Shown here in pieces: positions 3,325-18,271 of a stretch of 24,000 nt of DNA (positions are counted from its first letter, which is position 1; the number at the start of each line of letters is the position of its first letter). The position numbers and the translations under genes are program-made. Below the pieces are notes generated by a model. It was not told where the DNA came from and did no database searches. It saw only the letters and a list, made by a program, of their open reading frames with translations. The DNA is from Candidatus Stoquefichus massiliensis AP9 (GTDB lineage: Bacteria > Bacillota_I > Bacilli_A > Erysipelotrichales > Coprobacillaceae): the NCBI RefSeq assembly GCF_000455285.1, contig NZ_HG005296.1, forward strand, positions 31,549 through 55,548. The letters are read 5' to 3'.

Positions 3325-3333
3325 GACTCTTTT
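3301..3333. terminator. Bidirectional hairpin between convergent CYTH and YitT genes
   Basis: Perfect 13-bp stem AAAAGAGTCTTAG (3301..3313) / CTAAGACTCTTTT (3321..3333), 7-nt loop, with A/T runs on both sides. Confidence 0.6.
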
Positions 3334-4204
3334 AATCGATAGGTGCCTGATAAAACCCACCAAAGAAATTTTCAGTTTTCACAACATTAATAATAGCTTT
3401 TGGATCTACATCACGAATTAAATCAACAATATCCTGAACTTCATAACTAGAAACAACAGTATGTAATAAATTCATTGGTTTTTGACTATATCCACCCATT
3501 GCATCTACACAAGAAATACCATGACGATAATTCGCAACATATGCATCTATAACACGTTTAGAATGAGTTGTTGTGATTTGTAAGGTCATACGTTCATAAC
3601 GATGATAGAATGAATCTATTGTTCTCGTTGAGATGAATTGAAATAAGATAGAATACCCTGCATGTTCCCAGCCAAACATATACCCAAATATCACTAAAAT
3701 CAAAGTATTAAATACAAAGACATATTCCCAAATAGAACGTCCTTTACGATTCGATACGTATAAAGCTATAAAATCCGTTCCACCAGTCGAAGCATTTCCT
3801 TTTAATGCTAGCACAGTTAATAAACCATATGCAAAACCACCAAAAGCGATATTTAATAAAATATCATCAAATAAAGGTGGAAAATCAATAAATCGTAAAA
3901 ACAAACTGGCTAAAAAGACTTCTAATAATGAAAAGAACGTAAACTTTGGACTAATACTCTTATAGCATAATATAGCAACTGGAATATTCAAAAGAATCAT
4001 TCCAAGTGATACAGAAAATTGAAATCCTGCTAATGAGGTGATTTTATTAATCAAAATAGCAACCCCAGTAAAACCACTAGATAATAAATCAGCTGGTTCA
4101 ATAAATACCTTAATCACATAAGCCTGCATAAAAGCAGCAATAATCACACAGATGAGTGTAATCAATAATCTTATCTGTTTATTTTTTCTTAGTCTTCTCA
4201 TCAT
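3332..4204 (-). CDS. YitT-family membrane protein (YitT membrane domain + DUF2179-like C-terminal domain)
   Basis: 290 aa. Has an N-terminal basic stretch, then several TM helices and a soluble C-terminal domain (ITTTHSKRVIDAY...VVKTENFFGGFY). ATGATGA overlap with the cutC stop suggests translational coupling. Confidence 0.75.
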   Translation of the reverse strand: MMRRLRKNKQIRLLITLICVIIAAFMQAYVIKVFIEPADLLSSGFTGVAILINKITSLAGFQFSVSLGMILLNIPVAILCYKSISPKFTFFSLLEVFLASLFLRFIDFPPLFDDILLNIAFGGFAYGLLTVLALKGNASTGGTDFIALYVSNRKGRSIWEYVFVFNTLILVIFGYMFGWEHAGYSILFQFISTRTIDSFYHRYERMTLQITTTHSKRVIDAYVANYRHGISCVDAMGGYSQKPMNLLHTVVSSYEVQDIVDLIRDVDPKAIINVVKTENFFGGFYQAPID

Positions 4205-4941
4205 AAACTTTCTATTAACTTCCTTACTAAATCAGCACTTACAATTTCATAATCCATAATATGAGGCTTATCAACATATGCAAAACTCACATGATGTAAA
4301 GCTGTTGTAGGATCCATCATCCAATCTTTACATGAACTATGAACCTGTGATATTCCTGTTTTTTCCATTATTTCTTTTGCATTACTTGCATTTATACCAC
4401 TACCTGCAAGAATTTCTATACGATTTCCATAATCTTTTTGTAATTGTTTAATGATTTCAATACCATCGGTTGCTTTTGTTTCAAGTCCACTTGTTAAAAC
4501 ACGATCAACACCTAATTCTATCAATGTTTCAATGGCTTCAATCGGATCTTCAACACAGTCAAAAGCACGATGAAAAACAACTTCACCTTGAAAATCTTTA
4601 ATAATAGAAATCATCTGCCCTGTTCGTTTTCGATCAATATGTCCTGATTCATCTAAACATCCAAAAGCAATTCCATCAGCACCATGTTCTAACAACATCA
4701 CAGCATCATGTTTCATAACTCTAAACTCATCATCTGTATAATGAAAACCCGCCCCACGTGGGCGTACCATTGCAATAACTTTTAAATCAGTATCTTTCTT
4801 TGTTAAAACAAGTGTTGCTAAACTTGGTGTTAAACCTCCTAAATGCAATGCACTGTTCAACTCAATACGTGACGCTCCACCACGATAAGCATTTAAAGCA
4901 TCTTCATAACTACCACAACAAATTTCTACAGTTTTTTCCAT
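4201..4941 (-). CDS. cutC: CutC-family TIM-barrel protein (annotated copper homeostasis protein CutC)
   Basis: 246 aa. The N-terminus EICCGSYEDALNAYRGGASRIELNSAL is the characteristic CutC start. RBS AGGAGG lies 8 nt upstream and overlaps the M20 stop codon. Confidence 0.85.
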   Translation of the reverse strand: MEKTVEICCGSYEDALNAYRGGASRIELNSALHLGGLTPSLATLVLTKKDTDLKVIAMVRPRGAGFHYTDDEFRVMKHDAVMLLEHGADGIAFGCLDESGHIDRKRTGQMISIIKDFQGEVVFHRAFDCVEDPIEAIETLIELGVDRVLTSGLETKATDGIEIIKQLQKDYGNRIEILAGSGINASNAKEIMEKTGISQVHSSCKDWMMDPTTALHHVSFAYVDKPHIMDYEIVSADLVRKLIESL

Positions 4942-4953
4942 AAACTCAACCTC

Positions 4954-6060
4954 CTATAAATTTGCAAGATAATAGATTCCAAGTGCATATATTTTGGCAT
5001 TTGCTACAATATCATCAATCTTCATCCATTCATTAGGTTGATGACCAATGCCTTTTTGTCCTGGAAAACTTGGTCCAAATGGTACAATATTGGGCATAAG
5101 TTTTGCATAAGTTCCACCTGTTGTCGTCACTGGAGTTCCATCCATATTAGTAATTGTTTCATAAGCAATTTGCAAAGCCTTTACCATTGGACAATCTTTT
5201 TCAAATCGAACAGGGAGATAATGATGAACACATTCAACCTTGAAGTCTCCTGCTTTCTCTTGAATAGTCTTCAGCATATCATCAAGACAGGCACTTGCTG
5301 GATAAGAGAAAGTTACTGAGAATATGAGACGATGATGATTATGCTTCAATTCATAATTACGCATCTCATTCATACCAAATTCTTCATCATAGTCATCAAC
5401 ACCTAGTCTTTCACCATTAGGCTTGGCATTCATAAAATAAGTATTCACAAATGTAAAGAAATCATTAATATTTTTTTCATCAGTTGAAATCTCTATAACT
5501 GCTCTACCGCGTTCTCCATAAACAACAGGATACTTACAATCAGGTGTCCACCCCATAATTGGTGGCTTTTGATGTTTTAAATAATATTCTAAATCTTCAA
5601 ATCCAGATTCTTCATCACAACCAAAAATAATGCGTACTGGTCTCTTTAACTCTATCTGTAATAATTTTAACGCATATAAAGCATATAAACAACTCAATAG
5701 TGGTCCCTTATTATCTAAAATACCTCGAGAATAGATAAACCCATCTTTTTCATAGCCACTAAACGGTGGTTGTTTCCATCCTTCGCCAACTGGTACAACA
5801 TCTAAATGACCAATAATCCCAATATAATCATCACCTTCACCATATTGAGCCCAACCAATATAATGATCTAAATTTTCTGTATGAAAGCCTAATTCCTGTG
5901 CAAGTTTCAATACTTCATCAAGAGTTCGTGCTATATCTTTACCAAAAGGTGCATGTTTTTCTTTTTCACCTTTCACACTAGGCATACGAACAATTTTCTT
6001 AATATCTTCAATCATTTGAATAGATAATTGATCTATTTGATTTGTTATTAATGTTTCCAT
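4954..6060 (-). CDS. M20-family metallopeptidase (dipeptidase / amidohydrolase type), cytoplasmic
   Basis: 368 aa. Metal ligand motifs are present: GHLDVVP, GILDNKGP, CDEESG and a C-terminal GHQPNE. No signal peptide. The start lies 1 nt after the upstream gene's stop. Confidence 0.8.
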   Translation of the reverse strand: METLITNQIDQLSIQMIEDIKKIVRMPSVKGEKEKHAPFGKDIARTLDEVLKLAQELGFHTENLDHYIGWAQYGEGDDYIGIIGHLDVVPVGEGWKQPPFSGYEKDGFIYSRGILDNKGPLLSCLYALYALKLLQIELKRPVRIIFGCDEESGFEDLEYYLKHQKPPIMGWTPDCKYPVVYGERGRAVIEISTDEKNINDFFTFVNTYFMNAKPNGERLGVDDYDEEFGMNEMRNYELKHNHHRLIFSVTFSYPASACLDDMLKTIQEKAGDFKVECVHHYLPVRFEKDCPMVKALQIAYETITNMDGTPVTTTGGTYAKLMPNIVPFGPSFPGQKGIGHQPNEWMKIDDIVANAKIYALGIYYLANL

Positions 6061-6061
6061 A

Positions 6062-7018
6062 TTACTTCTCTTCCAATGGTGCCATTCTCGTTTTCATATA
6101 CTGATCAAGCCATTCCTGGCTCGCAACCTCATGCACACATTTCCCATCGATCATTTTTGTTAAGTAAACAGTTGGCTCTTGTAAAGCCGTTGCCACTGCA
6201 AAAGAGAAACCTTCAATATTTGTCGCAACACCCCATTCACCTTTATGATTCATTGCTATTAAAGAAAGATCTCCAGCTTTTCCTCGTCTTTGTTTTAATT
6301 CTCTATCCAAATCACAGACAGCTTTTTCACAAGCCGCTTGTGGGTGCATTCCCTCTTTCATCAATCTAACAATTTCATAAGAAATACAACCTTTCATTAA
6401 ATCTTCACCTAACCCTGTTGCACTTGCTCCACCAACTTGAGAATCAACATAGAATCCAGAACCTACAATTGGTGAGTCTCCAACACGCCCTTTTTTCTTC
6501 ATAAATAAACCACTCGTTGATGTTGCTGAAGTCATTTTTCCAAATTCATCTAAACATACCATACCGACTGTATCATGACCAGAATAGGGTTTGATTTCCT
6601 GTTCACGGACTTCTTTCATACGATTTTTAAAGTGAATTTTTGCACGTTCTGTAAGCATGTTCTTTCTTTCAAAGCCTTCTTTATGAGCAAACTTCTCTGC
6701 CCCTTCAGCAACTAACATACTATTTACTTTTTCTTGAGATAAACGTCTTGCAATGGAAATCGGATTAGCAAAATCTTTAATCGCTGCTACAGCACCCATA
6801 TCAAAAGTATCTCCATCCATAAAAGCCGCATCTAATTCAACTTCCATTTCTTCATTAGGAAGTCCACCATAACCTACTGATTTATAATACTCAAAATCTT
6901 CTACTGCCTTAATAGCTGTTTCAATAGCATCACCAGCATCTCCATGATTTGCTAAAATTTCACTTGCTTCACTAATTCCCTCAGCTGCCATACGCCATGT
7001 CGCAATAATACCCCACAT
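6062..7018 (-). CDS. Glycosylasparaginase-like Ntn hydrolase (Asparaginase_2 family; N4-(beta-N-acetylglucosaminyl)-L-asparaginase / isoaspartyl peptidase type)
   Basis: Autoprocessing/nucleophile motif GHDTVGMV followed by GRVGDSPIVGSGFY and GASATGLGEDLM. From memory this closely parallels eukaryotic and bacterial aspartylglucosaminidases (HDTIGM...GRVGDSPIPGAG). I set the start at ATG 7018 (MWGIIATW), preceded by AGGAGGT at 7026..7032. The listed TTG at 7039 lies inside that RBS. No signal peptide. Confidence 0.8.
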   Translation of the reverse strand: MWGIIATWRMAAEGISEASEILANHGDAGDAIETAIKAVEDFEYYKSVGYGGLPNEEMEVELDAAFMDGDTFDMGAVAAIKDFANPISIARRLSQEKVNSMLVAEGAEKFAHKEGFERKNMLTERAKIHFKNRMKEVREQEIKPYSGHDTVGMVCLDEFGKMTSATSTSGLFMKKKGRVGDSPIVGSGFYVDSQVGGASATGLGEDLMKGCISYEIVRLMKEGMHPQAACEKAVCDLDRELKQRRGKAGDLSLIAMNHKGEWGVATNIEGFSFAVATALQEPTVYLTKMIDGKCVHEVASQEWLDQYMKTRMAPLEEK

Positions 7019-7062
7019 ACATTTTACCTCCTTTAACAAACAAAACTGAGAATATCCCAGTT

Positions 7063-7386
7063 TTATTTTTTTGCTTTCTTCATTTCTTTAATTGCTGTTT
7101 TTAAAACCTTTTCACCATCCATTAATCCATAATCAGCAGAATCAATCACCGCAATTGGTTTTCCATTTTGACCATATCGATCAATTGTATCCTGTAATAA
7201 ATATTTTACTTGAGGTCCAAGTAAAATGCAATCAGGATTTTTAGATTCAATAATTTCTCCTAATGTTCCAATTGGAAACGCCTTGACTTCAAATGGTAAA
7301 TGATGTGCATTTGCTACATCCTGCATATTTTGGGCTAATAAACTTGTTGACATTCCATTACTACAAAATAAATAAATCTTTTTCAT
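7063..7386 (-). CDS. PTS EIIB component, lactose/cellobiose/chitobiose family (copy 1)
   Basis: 107 aa. MKKIYLFCSNGMSTSLL contains the phosphorylatable Cys, followed by the LLGPQVKY motif. Confidence 0.9.
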   Translation of the reverse strand: MKKIYLFCSNGMSTSLLAQNMQDVANAHHLPFEVKAFPIGTLGEIIESKNPDCILLGPQVKYLLQDTIDRYGQNGKPIAVIDSADYGLMDGEKVLKTAIKEMKKAKK

Positions 7387-7389
7387 TCT

Positions 7390-7728
7390 TTATTCCTCCT
7401 CTAATATTTTTGTTTCAAGACCAAAAATTCTTTGATAACAGGCATTCATCTCTTCAGCAAGAACTTTAAACTGTTCAACAGACATCACTTGATCTTGTGC
7501 ATGAATAAGTAAAAGATGATAATCATTTAAAATCCAGTTTACTTCTTCTTTGGTCAATTGATTTTGAATATCATAAACTTGAGCAAACTTATCATCGCCT
7601 TTACAAATAGACTGATTTGCTTTTTCAAAATCATTTTTTCTTGCTTCTTGAATAGATTTCATATAGTAAGCTTTTGCTTCACCAACTATTGAAATAATCA
7701 AGAAACATTTCTTAATTGATTCGTCCAT
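7390..7728 (-). CDS. PTS EIIA component, lactose/cellobiose/chitobiose family
   Basis: Small helical protein with an IHAQDQ motif carrying the conserved His. I prefer ATG 7728 (RBS AAGGGGTG 8 nt upstream) over the GTG at 7737 in the ORF track. Confidence 0.85.
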   Translation of the reverse strand: MDESIKKCFLIISIVGEAKAYYMKSIQEARKNDFEKANQSICKGDDKFAQVYDIQNQLTKEEVNWILNDYHLLLIHAQDQVMSVEQFKVLAEEMNACYQRIFGLETKILEEE

Positions 7729-7796: not shown

Positions 7797-7813
7797 TTCC
7801 TAGCACTTAGGAA
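7797..7813. promoter_or_regulatory. Operator palindrome S1 (TTCCTAGCACTTAGGAA) serving the EIIA operon promoter
   Basis: 17-bp inverted repeat with T/A-run flanks (7794..7816). It lies 33 nt from a minus-strand -10 TACAAT at 7758..7763. Confidence 0.6.
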
Positions 7814-7830
7814 AAATATACTTATAAGAT

Positions 7831-7847
7831 TTCCTAATAACTAGGAA
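7831..7847. promoter_or_regulatory. Operator palindrome S2 (TTCCTAATAACTAGGAA) serving the M3 peptidase promoter
   Basis: 17-bp inverted repeat, 32 nt from a plus-strand -10 TATACT at 7880..7885. Its centre is 34 bp from the centre of S1. Confidence 0.6.
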
Positions 7848-9814: not shown

Positions 9815-9838
9815 AAAAAAGCACATCAAAGTGCTTTA
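9815..9838 (-). terminator. Probable intrinsic terminator after the M42 gene pair
   Basis: Minus strand reads AAAGCAC-TTTGAT-GTGCTTT followed by TTT (plus-strand arms 9818..9824 and 9831..9837). It overlaps the TAA stop at 9836..9838. Confidence 0.45.
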
Positions 9839-10927
9839 TCCGATTCCATGATTGAATTGTTTATATTTATTCCAGTCTAATCTTCTACATAACTCAGCAA
9901 TAGCTTCAACAGTTTGTACATAATCTTTACGATGAATGATTAAGCGATGAGAATGCATATAACGTGTAGGAATACTTAAGGTCATACAAATAACCCCATC
10001 ATATGCTTTATGAATATTATCTGCATCTGTTCCTCCTACTGTCATCATATCATAATTGATATCTAAATGAAGATCTTTACAAATAGACTCCATCTCTTTT
10101 AATAGCGCTTTATGTCCAATGATTCCAGCATCCATAATACTTAAGACAACTCCCTTACCAAGTTTTATTTGTCCTTGATCTACAGGTGTATCCATAGCTG
10201 TTGTCACGTCTAAAGCAATAGCAACATCAGGATGAATCATATTGGCAGCAGTTCTTGCTCCTCTTAATCCAACTTCTTCCTGAACAGTTCCGACAGCATA
10301 GACATCAGCTTCTATATCATCATGGGATATACGTTCTAAAACCTCAATAGCTGCTGCTGCACATAAACGATCATCCCAAGCTTTACCCATTAAATAATTA
10401 GGATTATTCATGATTTCAAACTGAGTATCTGGTGTAATCATATCACCAATTTGAATTCCTAAATCCAATACTTCTTGTCTGTTATCAACACCTAAGTCTA
10501 AGAATAAATCTATTGGTTTGATAACTTTTTCTTTGACTTCTTTTTTGAGTCCATGTGGTGCACTACTACCAATCACACCATGATATCTTTTTCCACTTGC
10601 TGTTGTAATATAGAATGTTTGTGAAGGTAGAACATGTCCCCACCAACCACCAACAGGCAAAAGTCTAATAAATCCATTTTCATCTATTTCTCTCACCATG
10701 AAACCAACTTCATCCATATGACCTGCAATCATAATCTTAGGTCCATGATGACCTTTTTTAACACCAATAATAGATCCTAAGTTATCATATGTGATTTCAT
10801 CACATATAGGTTTCATGTATTTTTTCATAATTCTACTGACTTCTTTTTCACATCCTGATATTCCATGAGCCTCACTCATTTCTTTAATCATATCAAGATT
10901 CATTTTTCCATAGGGTTCCTTTAACAT
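9836..10927 (-). CDS. M42-family aminopeptidase (FrvX/YsdC/PepA-like), paralog 1
   Basis: 363 aa. All M42 metal/catalytic motifs are present: GHMDEVGF, AWDDR, VQEEVGLRGA, ALDVT and a C-terminal YMHSH. RBS AAGAGG 7 nt upstream of ATG 10927. Confidence 0.85.
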   Translation of the reverse strand: MLKEPYGKMNLDMIKEMSEAHGISGCEKEVSRIMKKYMKPICDEITYDNLGSIIGVKKGHHGPKIMIAGHMDEVGFMVREIDENGFIRLLPVGGWWGHVLPSQTFYITTASGKRYHGVIGSSAPHGLKKEVKEKVIKPIDLFLDLGVDNRQEVLDLGIQIGDMITPDTQFEIMNNPNYLMGKAWDDRLCAAAAIEVLERISHDDIEADVYAVGTVQEEVGLRGARTAANMIHPDVAIALDVTTAMDTPVDQGQIKLGKGVVLSIMDAGIIGHKALLKEMESICKDLHLDINYDMMTVGGTDADNIHKAYDGVICMTLSIPTRYMHSHRLIIHRKDYVQTVEAIAELCRRLDWNKYKQFNHGIG

Positions 10928-10938
10928 ATCATAGCCTC

Positions 10939-11991
10939 TTATCTATTTTCTTCTTTAAATGCTTGAATTTGCTTTTCATCAAGTGAAGTCAATACTTGAA
11001 TGATCGCTTTTTGAGCACTATTATAATCTCTTAAATCAATCATAGAATTTCCAGTATGAACACCTCTAGCACAAATACATGTACTCAAAGTTGGACATCC
11101 TGCAAATAATTTATGAATCCATGCTGAATCAGTTTGTCCCATATTATAGAAATATTGATAGTCTATATCATTTTTCTGACAAATTTCAACAAGATAATTT
11201 AATAATGCACGATTAGGCATCATCCCTTTATCATAATAACGAATTAAAATTCCCTTTCCTAATTGACCAATTTCATTGTCTTTTCCTTGATAGTCATCAG
11301 CAAATGAACAATCCATCACAATCCCCATATCAGGATGAATAAGACCAGTTGCTGTCGTTGCTCCACGCATTCCTACTTCTTCCTGTACAGTTGCCCCAAT
11401 ATACAAATCATAATCCAATTCAATATCTTTTAATGCCTTTAATACTTCAATTGCCATGATACAGCCATAACGATTGTCCCATGCTTTAGATACAATACGA
11501 TTTTCATTGAAAATTGTAAAAGAACCATCAAGAACAGCACTATCTCCTACATGTATTCCCATGTTTTCAACTTCCTCTTGTCCTGATGCGCCAATATCTA
11601 TCAACATCTTCTTTTCATCACATGCCTCAATATCCTTTAATGAACAGCCAATAATACCAATAACTTCATTTCCATCCTGTTTCAATACACGTACACGACT
11701 AGATAATAAAACCTGATTATCTATTCCACCAATTTTGATAAACTTCAATAAACCATTTTTGGTGATTTCTGTAATCATTAAACCGACTTCATCCATATGA
11801 CCACATACCATAACTCTTTGTGCATTTTCTTTTTTACTCTTTTTCACTGCAAAAAGACTTCCTAAGTGATCATAAACAATTTCATCACAATAAGGCTCTA
11901 AATAAGATTTCAATAATAAAGATACTCGTCTTTCATCACCTGCAATACCTACAACTTGTGTCATTTCTTCCATTAATTTTAAACTATCCAT
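10939..11991 (-). CDS. M42-family aminopeptidase, paralog 2
   Basis: Motifs GHMDEVGL, AWDNR, VQEEVGMRGA, VMDCS and GVHTGNS. The ORF track starts at 12009. I prefer ATG 11991 (MDSLKLMEEM, RBS AAAGGCAGG 6 nt upstream) because the predicted -10 (12015..12020) puts the transcript start at about 12008. Confidence 0.8.
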   Translation of the reverse strand: MDSLKLMEEMTQVVGIAGDERRVSLLLKSYLEPYCDEIVYDHLGSLFAVKKSKKENAQRVMVCGHMDEVGLMITEITKNGLLKFIKIGGIDNQVLLSSRVRVLKQDGNEVIGIIGCSLKDIEACDEKKMLIDIGASGQEEVENMGIHVGDSAVLDGSFTIFNENRIVSKAWDNRYGCIMAIEVLKALKDIELDYDLYIGATVQEEVGMRGATTATGLIHPDMGIVMDCSFADDYQGKDNEIGQLGKGILIRYYDKGMMPNRALLNYLVEICQKNDIDYQYFYNMGQTDSAWIHKLFAGCPTLSTCICARGVHTGNSMIDLRDYNSAQKAIIQVLTSLDEKQIQAFKEENR

Positions 11992-12053
11992 AACATACCT
12001 GCCTTTCATACTCTATTATAAATCCAAATAGCTACTCACATATGTAAGTTTCT

Positions 12054-12072: not shown

Positions 12073-12101
12073 AAGAACATGATTTTAATAACCATGTTCT
12101 T
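12073..12101 (-). terminator. Intrinsic terminator after the GrdB-like gene
   Basis: Minus strand reads AAGAACATG-(11-nt loop containing the TAA stop)-CATGTTCTT followed by TTTTT. Plus-strand arms are 12073..12081 and 12093..12101. Confidence 0.6.
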
Positions 12102-12606
12102 TTACAAACGCACTCACATCTTCTTTATTCACTAATCGTTTTGCGAGAGTGACCATATTCGATAGAGCCTGATTTAAACCAGTTCCACCCTTTTTAGGCA
12201 TTTTTAAAATATATACCTTATCTTTATAATCAGCAATAGCTGTTTCACATTCTTGTGACATGATGGCAAAGGCTGGAATATTTGTATGTTCCTGAATTGT
12301 TAATGCTGTCTTAGCTGCCATGATACCATATTCTCCATAATTGAAACATGGTCCACAAATGACAACATCCGGTTGAATCTTTTTCGCCATGGCTGCAAAC
12401 TTTTTAGAAACAGTTTCCGGATCATTCATAAATGTTCCATTCCCACAGTATAAAGTTCCAATAATTTTCCCACCAGCATCTTTCACCTGTTTTTCAAACA
12501 TATTACAAGATCCCATTGCTATCATTTTACCACCTAATGCTAAATCTGCACTCTCTTTTCCGCCTAAACCAGCTTGAGTTTGATCAAATATCATCAATAC
12601 CTTCAT
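12085..12606 (-). CDS. Stand-alone GrdB-N-terminal-domain protein (glycine/sarcosine/betaine reductase component B family, no selenocysteine-containing half)
   Basis: 173 aa. MKVLMIFDQTQAGLGGKESAD, then GTLYCGNGTF, then QPDVVICGPCFNYGEYG. From memory this follows the N-terminal third of GrdB/PrdB-type proteins (VHY.NQF.GGIGGEEKAD ... PD.fIAGPAFNAGRYG). RBS AAGGAG 7 nt upstream. The start lies 23 nt inside the EIIB copy 2 gene. Confidence 0.6.
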   Translation of the reverse strand: MKVLMIFDQTQAGLGGKESADLALGGKMIAMGSCNMFEKQVKDAGGKIIGTLYCGNGTFMNDPETVSKKFAAMAKKIQPDVVICGPCFNYGEYGIMAAKTALTIQEHTNIPAFAIMSQECETAIADYKDKVYILKMPKKGGTGLNQALSNMVTLAKRLVNKEDVSAFVKEHGY

Positions 12607-14220: not shown

Positions 14221-15585
14221 TTATAAATCAGAAAGATCTAAATCATCAAATGAAATATCTTCATCATCCTCATCTTCTGCTTCTAATTCCTCTTTTAAAT
14301 ATTGTTTATCTAACGCCTTAATAAATGGGAAATAAACAAGACAGCCTAAGACTAATAAGAAGATTTGCCAGATTGCAGCAATTGGCGAACCTGTTGATAA
14401 CCATCCAGAGAAACCAATTGGCGTTGTCCATGGTAGATTCACTCCTGTTGTTCTTGGAATGATTTCCCAAAGTGTTGCTAAGTAAGATAAAACTAAGTTC
14501 ATCATTGGTACTAAGATAAATGGTATAGCAATAATTGGATTTAAAACAATTGGTAAACCAAAGATAATAGGTTCATTGATACCAAATATTCCTGGAACAA
14601 TACTTAATTTTCCTAATTGTTTAATACGCTGAGATTTACAAAATCCTAACATCACAATAACCAAAGATAGAGTAGAACCTCCACCTCCAAAATTACAGAA
14701 GAAATTAGAGAATGGATTTGTAAAGATATGTGGTAATGCTTTTCCTGCTTCAAATGCAACTTGTTGTTCAATTGTTAAGACATTTCCAATAAAATATACA
14801 GAGTTTGCTACTGCAGGTCCATTAATACCAAAAAACCATAAGAATGTACATGCAAATGAATAAATAGCATTTGCAGCTAATGTATCTCCTAATCCTTTAA
14901 GTGGTATTTGTAAGATTTCCAATACAAATTGATGTGCTGTTCCAAACGAAGTCAAACCAAATAAAATACGTACTAAGAAGAATATTGTCATAACGAATGC
15001 ACTTGGTATTAATGCAGCAAATGAATCACATACTGCTGGAGGTACCCCTTTAGGCATCTTAATCGTCCATCCCTTTTTATAAACCCATGTAAAGATTAAA
15101 ACAGAAATAAGAGCACACACAAGTCCCATAAAAATTCCATCAGCACCAATATATCTAAATGCTAATCCATCAATTCCGTTTTCAGCAGCATCACTACCTT
15201 TTAGCAAGCTGACACCTGGAATTGATCCAATTCTTGTGTTTGTCAGAATAACAAAAGCAACTAACGAAACAACTGCTCCTTGAATTTTATCTCCTTTTAA
15301 TTCTCTTGCAAATGCATAACCAGTCCCAACGCAAGTCAGTAGACCAGTCATATTAAATGTTGCTCTTGAAACATTTGTAAACCAAGTTCCCCAGTTTTCT
15401 CCAAATACACTTGTCATCATATCTTCCCAGCCTGGAATTGGGAAGTTAGCAATTAACAAGAAGATTGATCCAACAATCAATAATGGAGTCGTGATTAAGA
15501 AACCATCACGAATAGCGATTAACACTCTATTTTTACCAAGTTTATCAGCAATTGGCATTAATACGCTTTCTAATTTGTTAAACAT
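14221..15585 (-). CDS. PTS EIIC permease, lactose/cellobiose/chitobiose family, with strongly acidic C-terminal tail
   Basis: 454-aa polytopic membrane protein. The N-terminus MFNKLESVLMPIADKLGKNRVLIAIRDGF is typical of ChbC/CelB/LicC-type EIIC. RBS AAAGGAGG at 15593..15600. Tail is EELEAEDEDDEDISFDDLDLSDL. Confidence 0.9.
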   Translation of the reverse strand: MFNKLESVLMPIADKLGKNRVLIAIRDGFLITTPLLIVGSIFLLIANFPIPGWEDMMTSVFGENWGTWFTNVSRATFNMTGLLTCVGTGYAFARELKGDKIQGAVVSLVAFVILTNTRIGSIPGVSLLKGSDAAENGIDGLAFRYIGADGIFMGLVCALISVLIFTWVYKKGWTIKMPKGVPPAVCDSFAALIPSAFVMTIFFLVRILFGLTSFGTAHQFVLEILQIPLKGLGDTLAANAIYSFACTFLWFFGINGPAVANSVYFIGNVLTIEQQVAFEAGKALPHIFTNPFSNFFCNFGGGGSTLSLVIVMLGFCKSQRIKQLGKLSIVPGIFGINEPIIFGLPIVLNPIIAIPFILVPMMNLVLSYLATLWEIIPRTTGVNLPWTTPIGFSGWLSTGSPIAAIWQIFLLVLGCLVYFPFIKALDKQYLKEELEAEDEDDEDISFDDLDLSDL

Positions 15586-15653: not shown

Positions 15654-15670
15654 TTCCTAACATATAGGAA
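15654..15670. promoter_or_regulatory. Operator palindrome S5 (TTCCTAACATATAGGAA) upstream of EIIC
   Basis: 17-bp inverted repeat, 33 nt from a minus-strand extended -10 TGTTATAAT (15615..15623). It sits 4 nt downstream of the RDD gene stop. Confidence 0.6.
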
Positions 15671-15674
15671 ATAT

Positions 15675-16277
15675 TTAATCTTCTCCTGTTATAACTAATT
15701 TTGTTTTTGCAATATAATCATGAAACATCTTTCTTTGTGGTGATGCACATGCCCACAACATAGAAACCGCTGTGATAATACCAAATAGATAAACATAAAT
15801 ATGATTCAAATCTTTACCAACCAAAATATTAATGATCTGATGAAAATAACTAGAACTTGCTGCAATATATCCTTCAACAATCATAACGCCAATGACTTCA
15901 CGTTTCAGTAAAGTTTTAAGATCAACATCATTGTCATCATTTTTTACAACTTTAATATTCATAATCTTTTTAGCAAAAGTTTGTCCTGGATAGATCTTGA
16001 GTGGAACAATGATAAAATAAGCAAGATAAACAGTAATCGCAAGTATTCCTGCTAAAATACTATAAGGCATAGGTAATAAAGTAATATTTTGAGTAATTTC
16101 TAAATCTTGAAAAAAGATTGAATAAATGAAAACAACAGGAATTCCTGCCAGCATACTTGCTGCGTACCAGTCAATCACATAAGCAAATAAGCGTTTAAAG
16201 TTATTTACTGTTGTCGGATTTGATTCTATGATTCTTGTATTATTTAATGCTGCATAATTAATTGTAGGTTTTTTCAT
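15675..16277 (-). CDS. RDD-family-like integral membrane protein
   Basis: About 200 aa from ATG 16277 (MKKPTINY), with RBS AAGGAGA 6 nt upstream. FKRLFAYVIDWY... followed by 3-4 TM helices fits the RDD architecture. The start overlaps the regulator's last 20 nt. The listed 16361 start runs deep into the regulator gene. Confidence 0.5.
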   Translation of the reverse strand: MKKPTINYAALNNTRIIESNPTTVNNFKRLFAYVIDWYAASMLAGIPVVFIYSIFFQDLEITQNITLLPMPYSILAGILAITVYLAYFIIVPLKIYPGQTFAKKIMNIKVVKNDDNDVDLKTLLKREVIGVMIVEGYIAASSSYFHQIINILVGKDLNHIYVYLFGIITAVSMLWACASPQRKMFHDYIAKTKLVITGED

Positions 16278-18192
16278 GCGTTTTCTCCTTTGTGATTTTA
16301 CAAATAAATTCATTATAATTTTTTGATTCCAATAAATCTGAAAAATGTCCAGCTTCACCAATAGCTTGACTCAACCAATCAAAGAACATTTTTAAAATAT
16401 CATGATCTTCTTCATTGATTGCAAGCAATATCACTAATTTCACTTTAAATGAACCCCAATCAATAGGATTTTTAAGGATTGCAACAGATAATGTTGGTGT
16501 ATTCACATAGTCTCCAAATGAGTGTGGTGTTGCAAATGAATAAGCAAATGATGTTGGCGACATATCCTCTCTTTTGAGAACACCTTTTTTAAAAAACTTA
16601 TTGACGACTCCACCTTCATAAAGCTGATCACATAAATATTCAATAACATCATGTGAAGTTTTTTTATCTAAATCCATATAAAAATATTTAGGATCTATTA
16701 ATTGTGTAATCTTCTGATTAAAAACAATTTGAAATCTTTTCTTTTCTAATTTTGATAAAGCCTGAAAAATCATTGATTCATCTTCATTATTAATAAACAT
16801 ACTAACTTGAATTGTTAAGATATCTAATTCATGAGAAAGAGGTGTTGTTGTGATTAAAAGATCGGGATTTAAAGCTAAGACTTTGGCTTCTTCAAATAAT
16901 GACAAAGTTTCTACTATTTCAAGTCTTTCTCCAAATGTTGATTCAATCTTTTTTTGACCTAAAGATGAAAAGTTTTGATCATAAGGAATAATCATGACTG
17001 CCTTAAATTTACTATTTCTATTTAATCTTTCATAAGCTGCTCCAAAATGTAATGCAATAAAACCCATTTCTGATTCATTAATTTGTATATTTAATCTTTC
17101 TTCTAAAGCTTTTCCTACTGAGACACCCATCTCAAAGACTAATGGATAATTTCTTTTAATATCATGAATAAAAAGATTATCAGCATTAACATGATGTTTA
17201 TATCTATCTATAAGTCCTTGTAAATGCATCTTTAACCCTGCCATAAAATCATCATCTTCATGAAATTGTACATGTAATTTCTTTTCTATTGGTGTGACGA
17301 CTTCTTCTAGTAATTGATCCATATCAATATGAGTCTCTTCTATTTCTAAATAATCAGGTTGATATTGTCCACTCTTATTAGAAAATAGCAAAGCTAATAA
17401 ACATGTTTCATCTTCATGAATTTCTATAGGAATATCTTGTTTCAATCTTTCAAAATATTCTTTAGCAATTTTGTATTCAATACTCTTTAATAATTTTTCA
17501 TTTTTTCTTTCTGTTGTATAAAAACGACAATTTAGCATTCTTTCAATACTAATACCAATATGTAAAATGAGCATAGGAAACATTGTATCTTTAATGATAT
17601 ATTGATTTTCTTTTAATACATCAACAAGTATATCTGTCGCATTGATTAAATCAAAATCTTTATAAAACATTGCTAATTTATTTAAATTCAAGAAATTACC
17701 TTGTGTTTCATTAGATAATAACTCTTTATATAATTTTCTTTTTTCTATTTCATCACCTTTTAAATAGATATAATTCTTAGAACGAACAAGTTTAAGATGA
17801 GGATATCTTTCTAATGTCTTACGGACTTTCTTTATATCATTTTCAATCGAATAACCACTTACAAAGATATCTTCTTGTAAAAATGTTAAATTCACACCAT
17901 CTTCATGAATTAACAATTGTTGGATTAAATATGTACATCTTTGAGCTGGTGTTTGAGGAATATCAACTTGAGCATCCACATAGATTTGATTATATTTATC
18001 TAAATCAAGAAAATAACCTGTTCGAATATTAGACAAAATCAACTCCTCTTTAAAATGTTTATTAATGGCATCAATATCTGAACGTATAGTCCTATCTGAA
18101 ACACTCATAAGTCTTGCAAGTTCCTTACCTGTAATCCATTCTTTATTCTCATAAAAGATAGATATAATGCGTTCCTGTCTTTTGTTGAGCAT
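16258..18192 (-). CDS. PRD-domain PTS regulator, LicR/MtlR/ManR type (HTH + Mga-like HTH + 2 PRD + EIIB-like + EIIA-like domains)
   Basis: 644 aa. N-terminal winged HTH (ITGKELARLMSVSDRTIRSDIDAINKHF), central PRD-like helical repeats, and a C-terminal EIIA(Mtl/Fru)-like region (SFATPHSFGDYV...VILLAINEED). Confidence 0.85.
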   Translation of the reverse strand: MLNKRQERIISIFYENKEWITGKELARLMSVSDRTIRSDIDAINKHFKEELILSNIRTGYFLDLDKYNQIYVDAQVDIPQTPAQRCTYLIQQLLIHEDGVNLTFLQEDIFVSGYSIENDIKKVRKTLERYPHLKLVRSKNYIYLKGDEIEKRKLYKELLSNETQGNFLNLNKLAMFYKDFDLINATDILVDVLKENQYIIKDTMFPMLILHIGISIERMLNCRFYTTERKNEKLLKSIEYKIAKEYFERLKQDIPIEIHEDETCLLALLFSNKSGQYQPDYLEIEETHIDMDQLLEEVVTPIEKKLHVQFHEDDDFMAGLKMHLQGLIDRYKHHVNADNLFIHDIKRNYPLVFEMGVSVGKALEERLNIQINESEMGFIALHFGAAYERLNRNSKFKAVMIIPYDQNFSSLGQKKIESTFGERLEIVETLSLFEEAKVLALNPDLLITTTPLSHELDILTIQVSMFINNEDESMIFQALSKLEKKRFQIVFNQKITQLIDPKYFYMDLDKKTSHDVIEYLCDQLYEGGVVNKFFKKGVLKREDMSPTSFAYSFATPHSFGDYVNTPTLSVAILKNPIDWGSFKVKLVILLAINEEDHDILKMFFDWLSQAIGEAGHFSDLLESKNYNEFICKITKEKTHEKTYN

Positions 18193-18254: not shown

Positions 18255-18271
18255 TTCCTAACTATTAGGAA
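18255..18271. promoter_or_regulatory. Operator palindrome S6 (TTCCTAACTATTAGGAA) upstream of the PRD regulator gene
   Basis: 17-bp inverted repeat, 33 nt from a minus-strand extended -10 TGTTATAAT (18216..18224). Geometry is identical to the EIIC promoter. Confidence 0.6.

Follow-up and report, generated by a model that had tools for sequence, protein, structure and literature searches.

In a 24,000-nucleotide stretch of Candidatus Stoquefichus massiliensis AP9 DNA (contig NZ_HG005296.1, positions 31,549 to 55,548; hereafter the window, whose own numbering is used throughout), adjacent genes encode EIIA and EIIB of the lactose/cellobiose (Lac/Cel) phosphotransferase system (PTS) family, an N-terminal nucleophile (Ntn) hydrolase and an M20 metallopeptidase. 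N-acetylglucosaminyl-asparagine (GlcNAc-Asn) is the last stub of every N-glycoprotein. We consider it quite probable that these four genes are part of a PTS-dependent system for GlcNAc-L-asparagine, and probably also for short GlcNAc-peptides, derived from N-glycoproteins, with the Ntn hydrolase acting as the glycosylasparaginase (GA) of the pathway. The proposal is based on the identities of the genes, the catalytic residues of their products, a conserved linkage between GA and PTS genes and an operator shared by the scattered parts of the system, all of which were observed directly.

Gene organization

Gene boundaries were read from the sequence and from the list of open reading frames (ORFs). 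Six tightly packed minus-strand genes span positions 7728-3332:

7390..7728, minus strand: PTS EIIA, Lac/Cel family, 112 amino acids (aa); ATG at 7728; Pfam PTS_IIA, 1.6e-21; histidine motif IHAQD
7063..7386, minus strand: PTS EIIB, Lac/Cel family, 107 aa; ATG at 7386, TAA at 7065-7063; Pfam PTS_IIB, 3.9e-15; NF007796, 4e-25; N-terminal Cys in FCSNGMSTS
6062..7018, minus strand: putative cytoplasmic GA of the EgaG/AsnA2 type, 318 aa; Ntn hydrolase; Pfam Asparaginase_2, 7.5e-67; TAA at 6064-6062; predicted self-cleavage at D149/T150
4954..6060, minus strand: M20 metallopeptidase of the PepV/Sapep type with half-size lid, 368 aa; ATG at 6060; Pfam Peptidase_M20, 8.5e-28
4201..4941, minus strand: CutC-family TIM-barrel protein; Pfam CutC, 1.1e-58; ribosome-binding site overlapping the M20 stop
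3332..4204, minus strand: YitT-family membrane protein with DUF2179; Pfam YitT_membrane, 3.9e-46, and DUF2179, 2.1e-14; last gene of the operon

EIIA and EIIB are separated by 3 nt and M20 and cutC by 12 nt; cutC and the YitT-family gene overlap by 4 nt. The Ntn hydrolase ORF opens at TTG 7039, and an in-frame ATG at 7018 is located 7 nt behind AAAGGAGGT. This ATG is the likely start of the gene, giving the predicted 318-aa product and a 44-nt gap after EIIB. The M20 gene starts 1 nt past the hydrolase stop. Both distances had been reported in an earlier note on this DNA and were confirmed in the sequence. The earlier note had also remarked that the operon place normally held by a 6-phospho-beta-glycosidase is taken by the Ntn hydrolase; domain searches of the window proteins found neither a phospho-glycosidase or other glycosidase nor a sugar kinase across the whole 24 kb.

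The Ntn hydrolase is a predicted cytoplasmic glycosylasparaginase

In phmmer searches against PDB sequences, the best matches of the Ntn hydrolase were the Flavobacterium/Elizabethkingia glycosylasparaginase entries (1p4k; 8e-60, 206 bits), whereas isoaspartyl peptidases (human ASRGL1, EcAIII type) scored 116-122 bits and taspase ~65 bits. The sole NCBIfam match was the beta-aspartyl-peptidase equivalog NF007589, at 124.4 bits versus a cut-off of 567. NCBI gives the name N(4)-(beta-N-acetylglucosaminyl)-L-asparaginase to proteins of Coprobacillus, Faecalibacillus, Longibaculum, Peptacetobacter and Clostridium that share 83-88% identity with the window enzyme. Identity was 57% to the AsnA2 of Lacticaseibacillus loci resembling alf-2 and 59-62% to the enzymes of Enterococcaceae loci with the layout of ega, two known systems that are compared at the end.

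The G-H-D-T-V-G-M motif described in the earlier note was found as stated, with H148, D149 and T150 counted from ATG 7018. These three residues align with H150-D151-T152 of the Flavobacterium enzyme; the other aligned pairs are T168 with T170, R178 with R180, D181 with D183, T201 with T203, G202 with G204, and W8 with W11. In the Flavobacterium enzyme, we take H-D-T to serve autoproteolysis and to provide the nucleophile Thr, R180 and D183 to bind the aspartate, T170 to be among the residues that bind the aspartyl part or form the oxyanion hole, T203-G204 to form the oxyanion hole, and W11 and F13 to be the aromatic pair that stacks on GlcNAc. H-D-T is nearly invariant in two family alignments (A1 and A2). 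Of the stacking pair, W8 is retained in the window enzyme and the F13 position is M10, a residue that is invariant across a 75-row clade of cytoplasmic enzymes (see below), including the AsnA2 type of measured activity.

The PDB scores, the aligned catalytic columns, the NCBIfam score below cut-off and the names of close relatives together identify the window protein, by sequence, as a glycosylasparaginase and not an isoaspartyl peptidase. This was the family assignment favoured by the earlier note, and the 206 versus ~120 bits, with H-D-T and all aspartate-binding residues aligned, uphold it. The predicted location is cytoplasmic: a signal peptide is absent, as the earlier note had said, since residue 4 of the product already aligns with residue 7 of the mature Flavobacterium enzyme.

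Conservation of the PTS-glycosylasparaginase locus

Species-representative genomes were scanned with an eight-row GA alignment, which yielded 80 loci (counts in some comparisons extend to 89 loci), and the 15 proteins of the window were mapped onto them by tblastn. A locus was scored as PTS-linked when a Lac/Cel EIIC lay within 6 kb of the GA gene. Such linkage was found in 39 of 65 classifiable loci, belonging to Bacillota, Pseudomonadota, Actinomycetota and Spirochaetota and including Gammaproteobacteria, Collinsella and a spirochaete; the complementary class without a nearby PTS is unreliable, because the window's own EIIC lies more than 6 kb away. An M20 gene was located no more than 4.5 kb from the GA gene in 29 of the 39 PTS-linked loci.

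A compact operon of the order PRD regulator-(RDD)-EIIA-EIIB-EIIC-GrdB-like-GA-M20-CutC-YitT recurs in Clostridium neonatale, C. sartagoforme, Lachnospiraceae, Eubacterium, Hungatella, Butyricicoccus and a Coprobacillaceae chromosome. Orthologues of the window's PTS genes adjoin GA in L001-L011 and in the Enterococcaceae loci. EIIA orthologues are positioned upstream of EIIB-EIIC-GA in L002-L009, the window EIIB shares 59-67% identity with its counterparts in the compact operons of other genomes, and the window EIIC shares 47-70% identity with EIICs encoded immediately next to GA elsewhere. The PRD regulator heads the compact operon in L002-L006, L009-L011 and L031; the GrdB-like gene is flanked by EIIC and GA in L001-L007 and L009 and follows EIIC in three Enterococcaceae loci (L090, L091, L094); the YitT gene follows CutC in L002, L003, L005-L007, L009, L011, L031 and L068. 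Domain searches of the window and mapping of the loci detected no phospho-glycosidase, phosphatase or sugar kinase in the compact operons.

The gene order varies among lineages. Enterococcaceae have M20-GA-EIIB-EIIC-GrdB-like (L090, L091, L094) or M20-GA-EIIC-GrdB-like-M42-M42 (L092, L093). EIIC directly precedes GA in Serratia, Providencia, Trabulsiella, Scandinavium, Vibrio scophthalmi and Histophilus somni, with EIIB downstream in four of the six; tblastn gave no EIIB match at the Trabulsiella or Scandinavium loci. The gammaproteobacterial GA proteins (L032, L033, L038, L040, L041, L044 and L053, including a metagenome-assembled genome of Oceanospirillales) were 55-58% identical to the window enzyme and formed one well-supported clade; in the Oceanospirillales genome, too, GA is directly preceded by a Lac/Cel EIIC gene. 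A pair of M42 aminopeptidase genes is added in Erysipelothrix, Bulleidia, Clostridium sp. Ade.TY and Sarcina; such a tandem pair was present inside or beside the PTS-GA operon in L010, L011, L013, L019, L092 and L093, the last two being Enterococcaceae. Because of this recurrence, the M42 pair is regarded as part of a conserved accessory set.

A shared palindrome connects the scattered genes

The set is split in the window genome. EIIA-EIIB-GA-M20-CutC-YitT form one operon; 2-11 kb upstream, past the divergent pepF, are genes for the regulator, RDD, EIIC, S66, a second EIIB, a GrdB-like protein and two M42 aminopeptidases. The EIIC gene is 6.5 kb from the GA gene. The principal features of this region are:

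14221..15585, minus strand: PTS EIIC, Lac/Cel family; Pfam PTS_EIIC, 6e-61
12085..12606, minus strand: GrdB-N-terminal-like protein, 173 aa; Pfam GRDB, 7.9e-26; counterpart of the ega "putative oxidoreductase"
16258..18192, minus strand: PRD-containing putative activator; Pfam domains HTH, Mga, two PRD and EIIA_2
9836-12009: tandem M42 aminopeptidase pair
7797-7813 and 7831-7847: palindrome copies between the EIIA operon and the divergent pepF
15654-15670: palindrome copy upstream of EIIC
18255-18271: palindrome copy upstream of the PRD regulator gene

A DNA pattern search allowing up to two mismatches revealed four copies of the palindrome TTCCTA-N5-TAGGAA in the window, all with 0 mismatches; shuffled sequence gave a mean of 1.37 matches at the same tolerance. 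The presence of the exact palindrome at the EIIA operon, at EIIC and at the regulator gene indicates that the scattered pieces constitute one regulon. The PRD activator (16258-18192) is the likely regulator of this putative regulon, and the EIIC (14221-15585) is likely the membrane partner of EIIA and EIIB (7063-7728), given the shared operator and orthology.

The M20 peptidase is a short-lid form

The window M20 matched TIGR01887 (Sapep family) at 1.6e-104 and 350.6 bits, versus a cut-off of 207.95, in two stretches. Its alignment with PDB 3khz and 1lfw likewise fell into two stretches, leaving ~100 chain residues unmatched. The clan MH metal-binding and catalytic residues assigned by alignment (H85, D116, E150/E151, D174 and H340) are invariant in the M20 alignment A3. 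The protein has 368 aa, versus 441-454 aa in its Lacticaseibacillus and enterococcal counterparts, with ~68 lid columns deleted. S252 occupies the position of Sapep R350; this position is Ser in every short form and Arg in long forms, and is Ala in 3khz (titled R350A mutant) and Arg in 3khx. In an AlphaFold2 (AF2) model (pLDDT 94.2), the lid is built from two helices and four strands and is as large as a single DapE-type dimerisation module. Foldseek matched the fold to Sapep 3ki9 (TMq 0.86) and PepV 1lfw (TMq 0.84). On these alignments, the enzyme belongs to the PepV/Sapep subfamily in a short-lid form, the form typically found in operons with a PRD regulator. The simplest guess for its function is that it trims Asn(GlcNAc) dipeptides.

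Proposed pathway

In the window genome (3.5 Mb, 99.4% complete), searches gave a single Asparaginase_2 gene, 51 EIIC matches and two nagA genes. We infer the substrate, its phosphorylation and the role of M20 from the gene set as follows. Phosphate would pass from EI/HPr to EIIA (His of IHAQD) and on to EIIB (Cys of FCSNGMSTS). EIIC (15585-14221) would then import the glyco-amino acid and phosphorylate the 6-OH of GlcNAc, as expected from the known chemistry of the PTS family. GA, presumed to activate itself by D149/T150 cleavage, would cut the beta-aspartyl-glucosylamine amide to release L-aspartate and (6-P-)GlcNAc-1-amine. The amine would decay, or be helped to decay, to GlcNAc-6-P and ammonia, and NagA and NagB, encoded elsewhere, would pass the product to glycolysis, so that no sugar kinase would be required. 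The translationally coupled M20 would most likely remove the flanking residue from Asn(GlcNAc)-containing dipeptides.

The earlier note had proposed that the enzyme acts on the phosphorylated PTS product. As a working assumption this is reasonable, because the link between GA and the Lac/Cel PTS is conserved across phyla (39 of 65 loci); PTS-family chemistry and the lack of kinase, phosphatase and phospho-glycosidase genes in the operons also suggest hydrolysis of the phosphorylated form. However, comparison of the GA sequences revealed no sign of adaptation to a 6-phosphate. All 39 PTS-linked enzymes have R9 (beside the stacking Trp), K46 and R125, as do only 5 of 23 enzymes without a nearby EIIC. 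These residues were considered as a 6-phosphate pocket and rejected, since the MFS/kinase-linked enzymes of the alf-2 type in L095 and L096 carry all three. An independent-pairs test of the three residues against PTS linkage had five usable pairs, too few for significance (median p 0.5), and the K46 column holds Arg in the Flavobacterium enzyme as well. The changes that define the 75-row clade include M10 in place of the sugar-stacking Phe of the Flavobacterium enzyme. AsnA2 cleaves the O6-substituted compound 6'FN-Asn at 0.26 umol/mg/min and human AGA does not (PMC6960285). In view of this tolerance, the pocket of the clade appears to be open at O6, and a 6-phosphate substrate is plausible without special adaptation.

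Alternative explanations

Several observations weigh against a PTS-dependent pathway for GlcNAc-L-asparagine in this organism. EIIC is not adjacent to EIIA and EIIB, in a genome that holds 51 EIIC matches. No residue set separated PTS-linked from permease-linked enzymes when R9, K46 and R125 were compared with L095 and L096. The short M20 is devoid of the residues by which PepV-type dipeptidases hold the substrate carboxylate, and a pepV mutant of L. casei grew normally on 6'FN-Asn (PMC6960285), which bears on the role proposed for M20. No GH18 or GH85 endoglycosidase was found in the window genome, so the substrate must come from other organisms or from the host; the organism probably scavenges GlcNAc-Asn or glycopeptides freed by other microbes or by the host.

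Of the competing readings, one extends rather than excludes the proposed pathway: in place of the free glyco-amino acid, the true substrates would be glycopeptides of the form Asn(GlcNAc)-Xaa or Xaa-Asn(GlcNAc), or a little longer. The PTS would import them, intracellular trimming would fall to PepF, the S66 carboxypeptidase, M20 and both M42 aminopeptidases, and GA would act last. The PTS genes of the window have six peptidase genes around them, and both the M20 linkage (29 of 39 PTS-linked loci) and the recurrence of the M42 pair in the six loci named above fit this reading. Lac/Cel EIICs are known for disaccharide-sized substrates, and this counts against it. Becerra et al. proposed the same role for PepV (PMC6960285), but their pepV mutant showed no phenotype on 6'FN-Asn, and for E. 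faecalis the use of the free glyco-amino acid through the ega PTS has been reported (PMC11976118). On balance we regard glycopeptides as the true substrates as unlikely.

We judge it very improbable that GA hydrolyses unphosphorylated GlcNAc-Asn while the PTS serves another beta-glucoside (e.g. chitobiose), or that the phosphate is removed before hydrolysis. The 57%-identical AsnA2 type does work on the unphosphorylated compound (PMC6960285), and R9, K46 and R125 are the same in PTS-linked and permease-linked enzymes; on the other hand, the compact operons are devoid of phospho-glycosidase, phosphatase and sugar kinase genes, the GA-EIIC linkage is conserved in several phyla, and the ega PTS is reported to transport GlcNAc-L-Asn (PMC11976118). 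Hardly credible is the identification of the Ntn hydrolase as an isoaspartyl peptidase/L-asparaginase of the EcAIII/IaaA type that clears beta-aspartyl peptides together with the M20 dipeptidase. The shared Pfam family Asparaginase_2 and the beta-aspartyl-peptidase model as the only NCBIfam match speak for it; that match reaches 124 bits versus a cut-off of 567, the PDB scores favour glycosylasparaginase by more than 80 bits, the enzyme has H-D-T and the sugar-stacking Trp, its close relatives carry the name glycosylasparaginase, and the orthologous AsnA2 type has measured glycosylasparaginase activity (PMC6960285).

Phylogeny and spread

A maximum-likelihood tree was constructed for 85 enzymes, excluding rows shorter than 280 aa, the duplicate L081 and the split L088/L089. 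All rows from Bacillota, Pseudomonadota, Actinomycetota, Thermotogota and Spirochaetota fell into one clade of 75, which was split from the Bacteroidota, Ignavibacteriota and Armatimonadota rows by a branch of length 2.02 (SH-aLRT 100). Every PTS-linked enzyme was inside this clade, within which PTS linkage was patchy: the starred branches force at least seven changes. The window GA nested among the Clostridium neonatale, Butyricicoccus and Lachnospiraceae rows (L001, L002, L003; 80-84% identity), although its own genome is Erysipelotrichales-like. Such nesting points to a recent transfer of the operon between gut anaerobes by a horizontal route, and the core has apparently spread horizontally to reach Clostridia, Erysipelotrichia, Collinsella and several Gammaproteobacteria.

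In one Enterococcus-related genome (L088/L089), GA is split into two overlapping frames covering residues 1-176 and 173-315, and in another genome (L082) the gene has an internal TAA. The locus is decaying in some lineages.

Accessory genes and significance

In 33 of 89 loci, a CutC-family gene was no more than 3 kb from the gene for GA; 10 of these 33 loci had no PTS EIIC in the vicinity. Among the 26 loci without a nearby PTS, the 10 with CutC near GA included Erysipelotrichaceae, uncultured Clostridiales and Thermotogota (L020, L028, L039, L047, L059-L062, L064); CutC was also near GA in one Bacteroidota locus with short flanks (L073). We know of no established enzymatic function for CutC, and literature searches for a link between CutC and N-glycans or asparaginase gave only a STRING-type prediction in Xanthomonas. 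A role of CutC in handling the glucosylamine product is a testable guess.

A more far-reaching scheme is possible but on the whole doubtful. In it, the cytoplasmic EgaG/AsnA2 clade would be a distinct subfamily whose opened sugar pocket (Met for the stacking Phe) accepts O6-substituted substrates; its PTS-linked members would hydrolyse 6-phospho-GlcNAc-Asn directly, the co-inherited CutC would resolve 6-P-GlcNAc-1-amine, and the short-lid M20, in which the carboxylate-binding Arg of PepV is missing, would be specialised for glyco-dipeptides and would not serve as a general dipeptidase. If CutC did so, this would be its first real biochemical function.

Knowledge of the gut bacteria that consume GlcNAc-Asn, and of the route they use, is relevant to cross-feeding on glycoproteins of the host mucosa and the diet. 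As an enzyme, the glycosylasparaginase is unremarkable; of more practical use are the uncharacterized genes with which the core usually travels (CutC, YitT, GrdB-like, RDD and the short-lid M20), which are testable candidates.

Comparison with known systems

At the level of single enzymes, the window GA resembles the Flavobacterium/Elizabethkingia meningoseptica glycosylasparaginase (1p4k, 2gaw, 9gaa) and human AGA (1apy) in fold, H-D-T and nucleophile Thr, and has in common with them the sugar-stacking Trp, the aspartate-binding Arg and Asp and the oxyanion Thr-Gly. In contrast to these lysosomal or secreted proteins, the window enzyme has no signal peptide, carries M10 in place of Phe13 and falls into a separate clade. 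The M20 shares its catalytic domain and its metal-binding and catalytic residues with PepV (1lfw) and Staphylococcus aureus Sapep (3ki9, 3khz), but is without ~68-100 lid residues, the full double-module lid and the R350 equivalent.

At the level of operons, a partial precedent is alf-2 of L. casei (alfHC / asdA-alfR2-pepV-asnA2-sugK), in which pepV and asnA2 are adjacent; AsnA2 cleaves itself at its Thr and in vitro hydrolyses GlcNAc-Asn at a rate of 20.9 umol/mg/min (Becerra et al. 2020; PMC6960285). The Lacticaseibacillus loci L095 and L096 have this layout: GntR-PepV-AsnA2-ROK kinase with a divergent MFS permease and GH29 fucosidase. Both L095 and the window have an adjacent pair of M20 and cytoplasmic GA (M20 35% and GA 57% identical). 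The differences are that pepV precedes asnA2 in alf-2 and GA precedes M20 in the window, that alf-2 PepV retains the full lid and the Arg before Y-P and the window M20 does not, and that uptake in alf-2 is by an MFS permease followed by fucosidase and ROK kinase, in contrast to the PTS of the window, where domain searches found no MFS permease, GH29 fucosidase or ROK kinase.

The closest precedent is the ega locus of E. faecalis (Combret et al. 2023, Res Microbiol 175:104169), and the suggestion in the earlier note of an undescribed substrate is not supported: PTS-dependent use of GlcNAc-L-Asn via a glycosylasparaginase has been published for this species, according to the summaries in PMC11549559 and PMC11976118. 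The ega locus is described as encoding EgaG, EIIB and EIIC of the lactose/cellobiose PTS and a pseudogene for a putative oxidoreductase, with a GntR regulator and a dipeptidase under a second promoter (PMC11549559). The ega PTS is reported to carry GlcNAc-L-Asn, the free glyco-amino acid used by E. faecalis, and to rely on a shared CelA1 in place of an EIIA of its own (PMC11976118). The Enterococcaceae order M20-GA-EIIB-EIIC-GrdB-like matches the published layout of ega, and the window contains a counterpart of each member of this set (glycosylasparaginase, Lac/Cel EIIB and EIIC, GrdB-like and dipeptidase).

Relative to these ega-type Enterococcaceae loci, identity of the window proteins is 59-62% for GA, 42-46% for EIIB, 47-49% for EIIC, 38-44% for GrdB-like and ~40% for M20. 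The window has a dedicated EIIA, whereas ega uses the shared CelA1. A GntR repressor (EgaR) belongs to ega, and GntR is present in L030 and L095; the window has no GntR gene, and its putative regulator is a PRD/EIIA_2 activator with palindromic sites. The ega-type M20 is full-length (454 aa in L030), in contrast to the 368-aa short-lid form, and tblastn gave no match for CutC or YitT in Enterococcaceae loci L090, L091 and L094. The window genes are also distributed among three or four transcription units, interspersed with pepF, S66 and the two M42 genes. This basic type of pathway has been in the literature since 2023, and the pairing of GA with M20 since 2020; the window holds a rearranged and enlarged variant, whose predicted features beyond ega are the PRD activator, its own EIIA, the short-lid M20, CutC and YitT.

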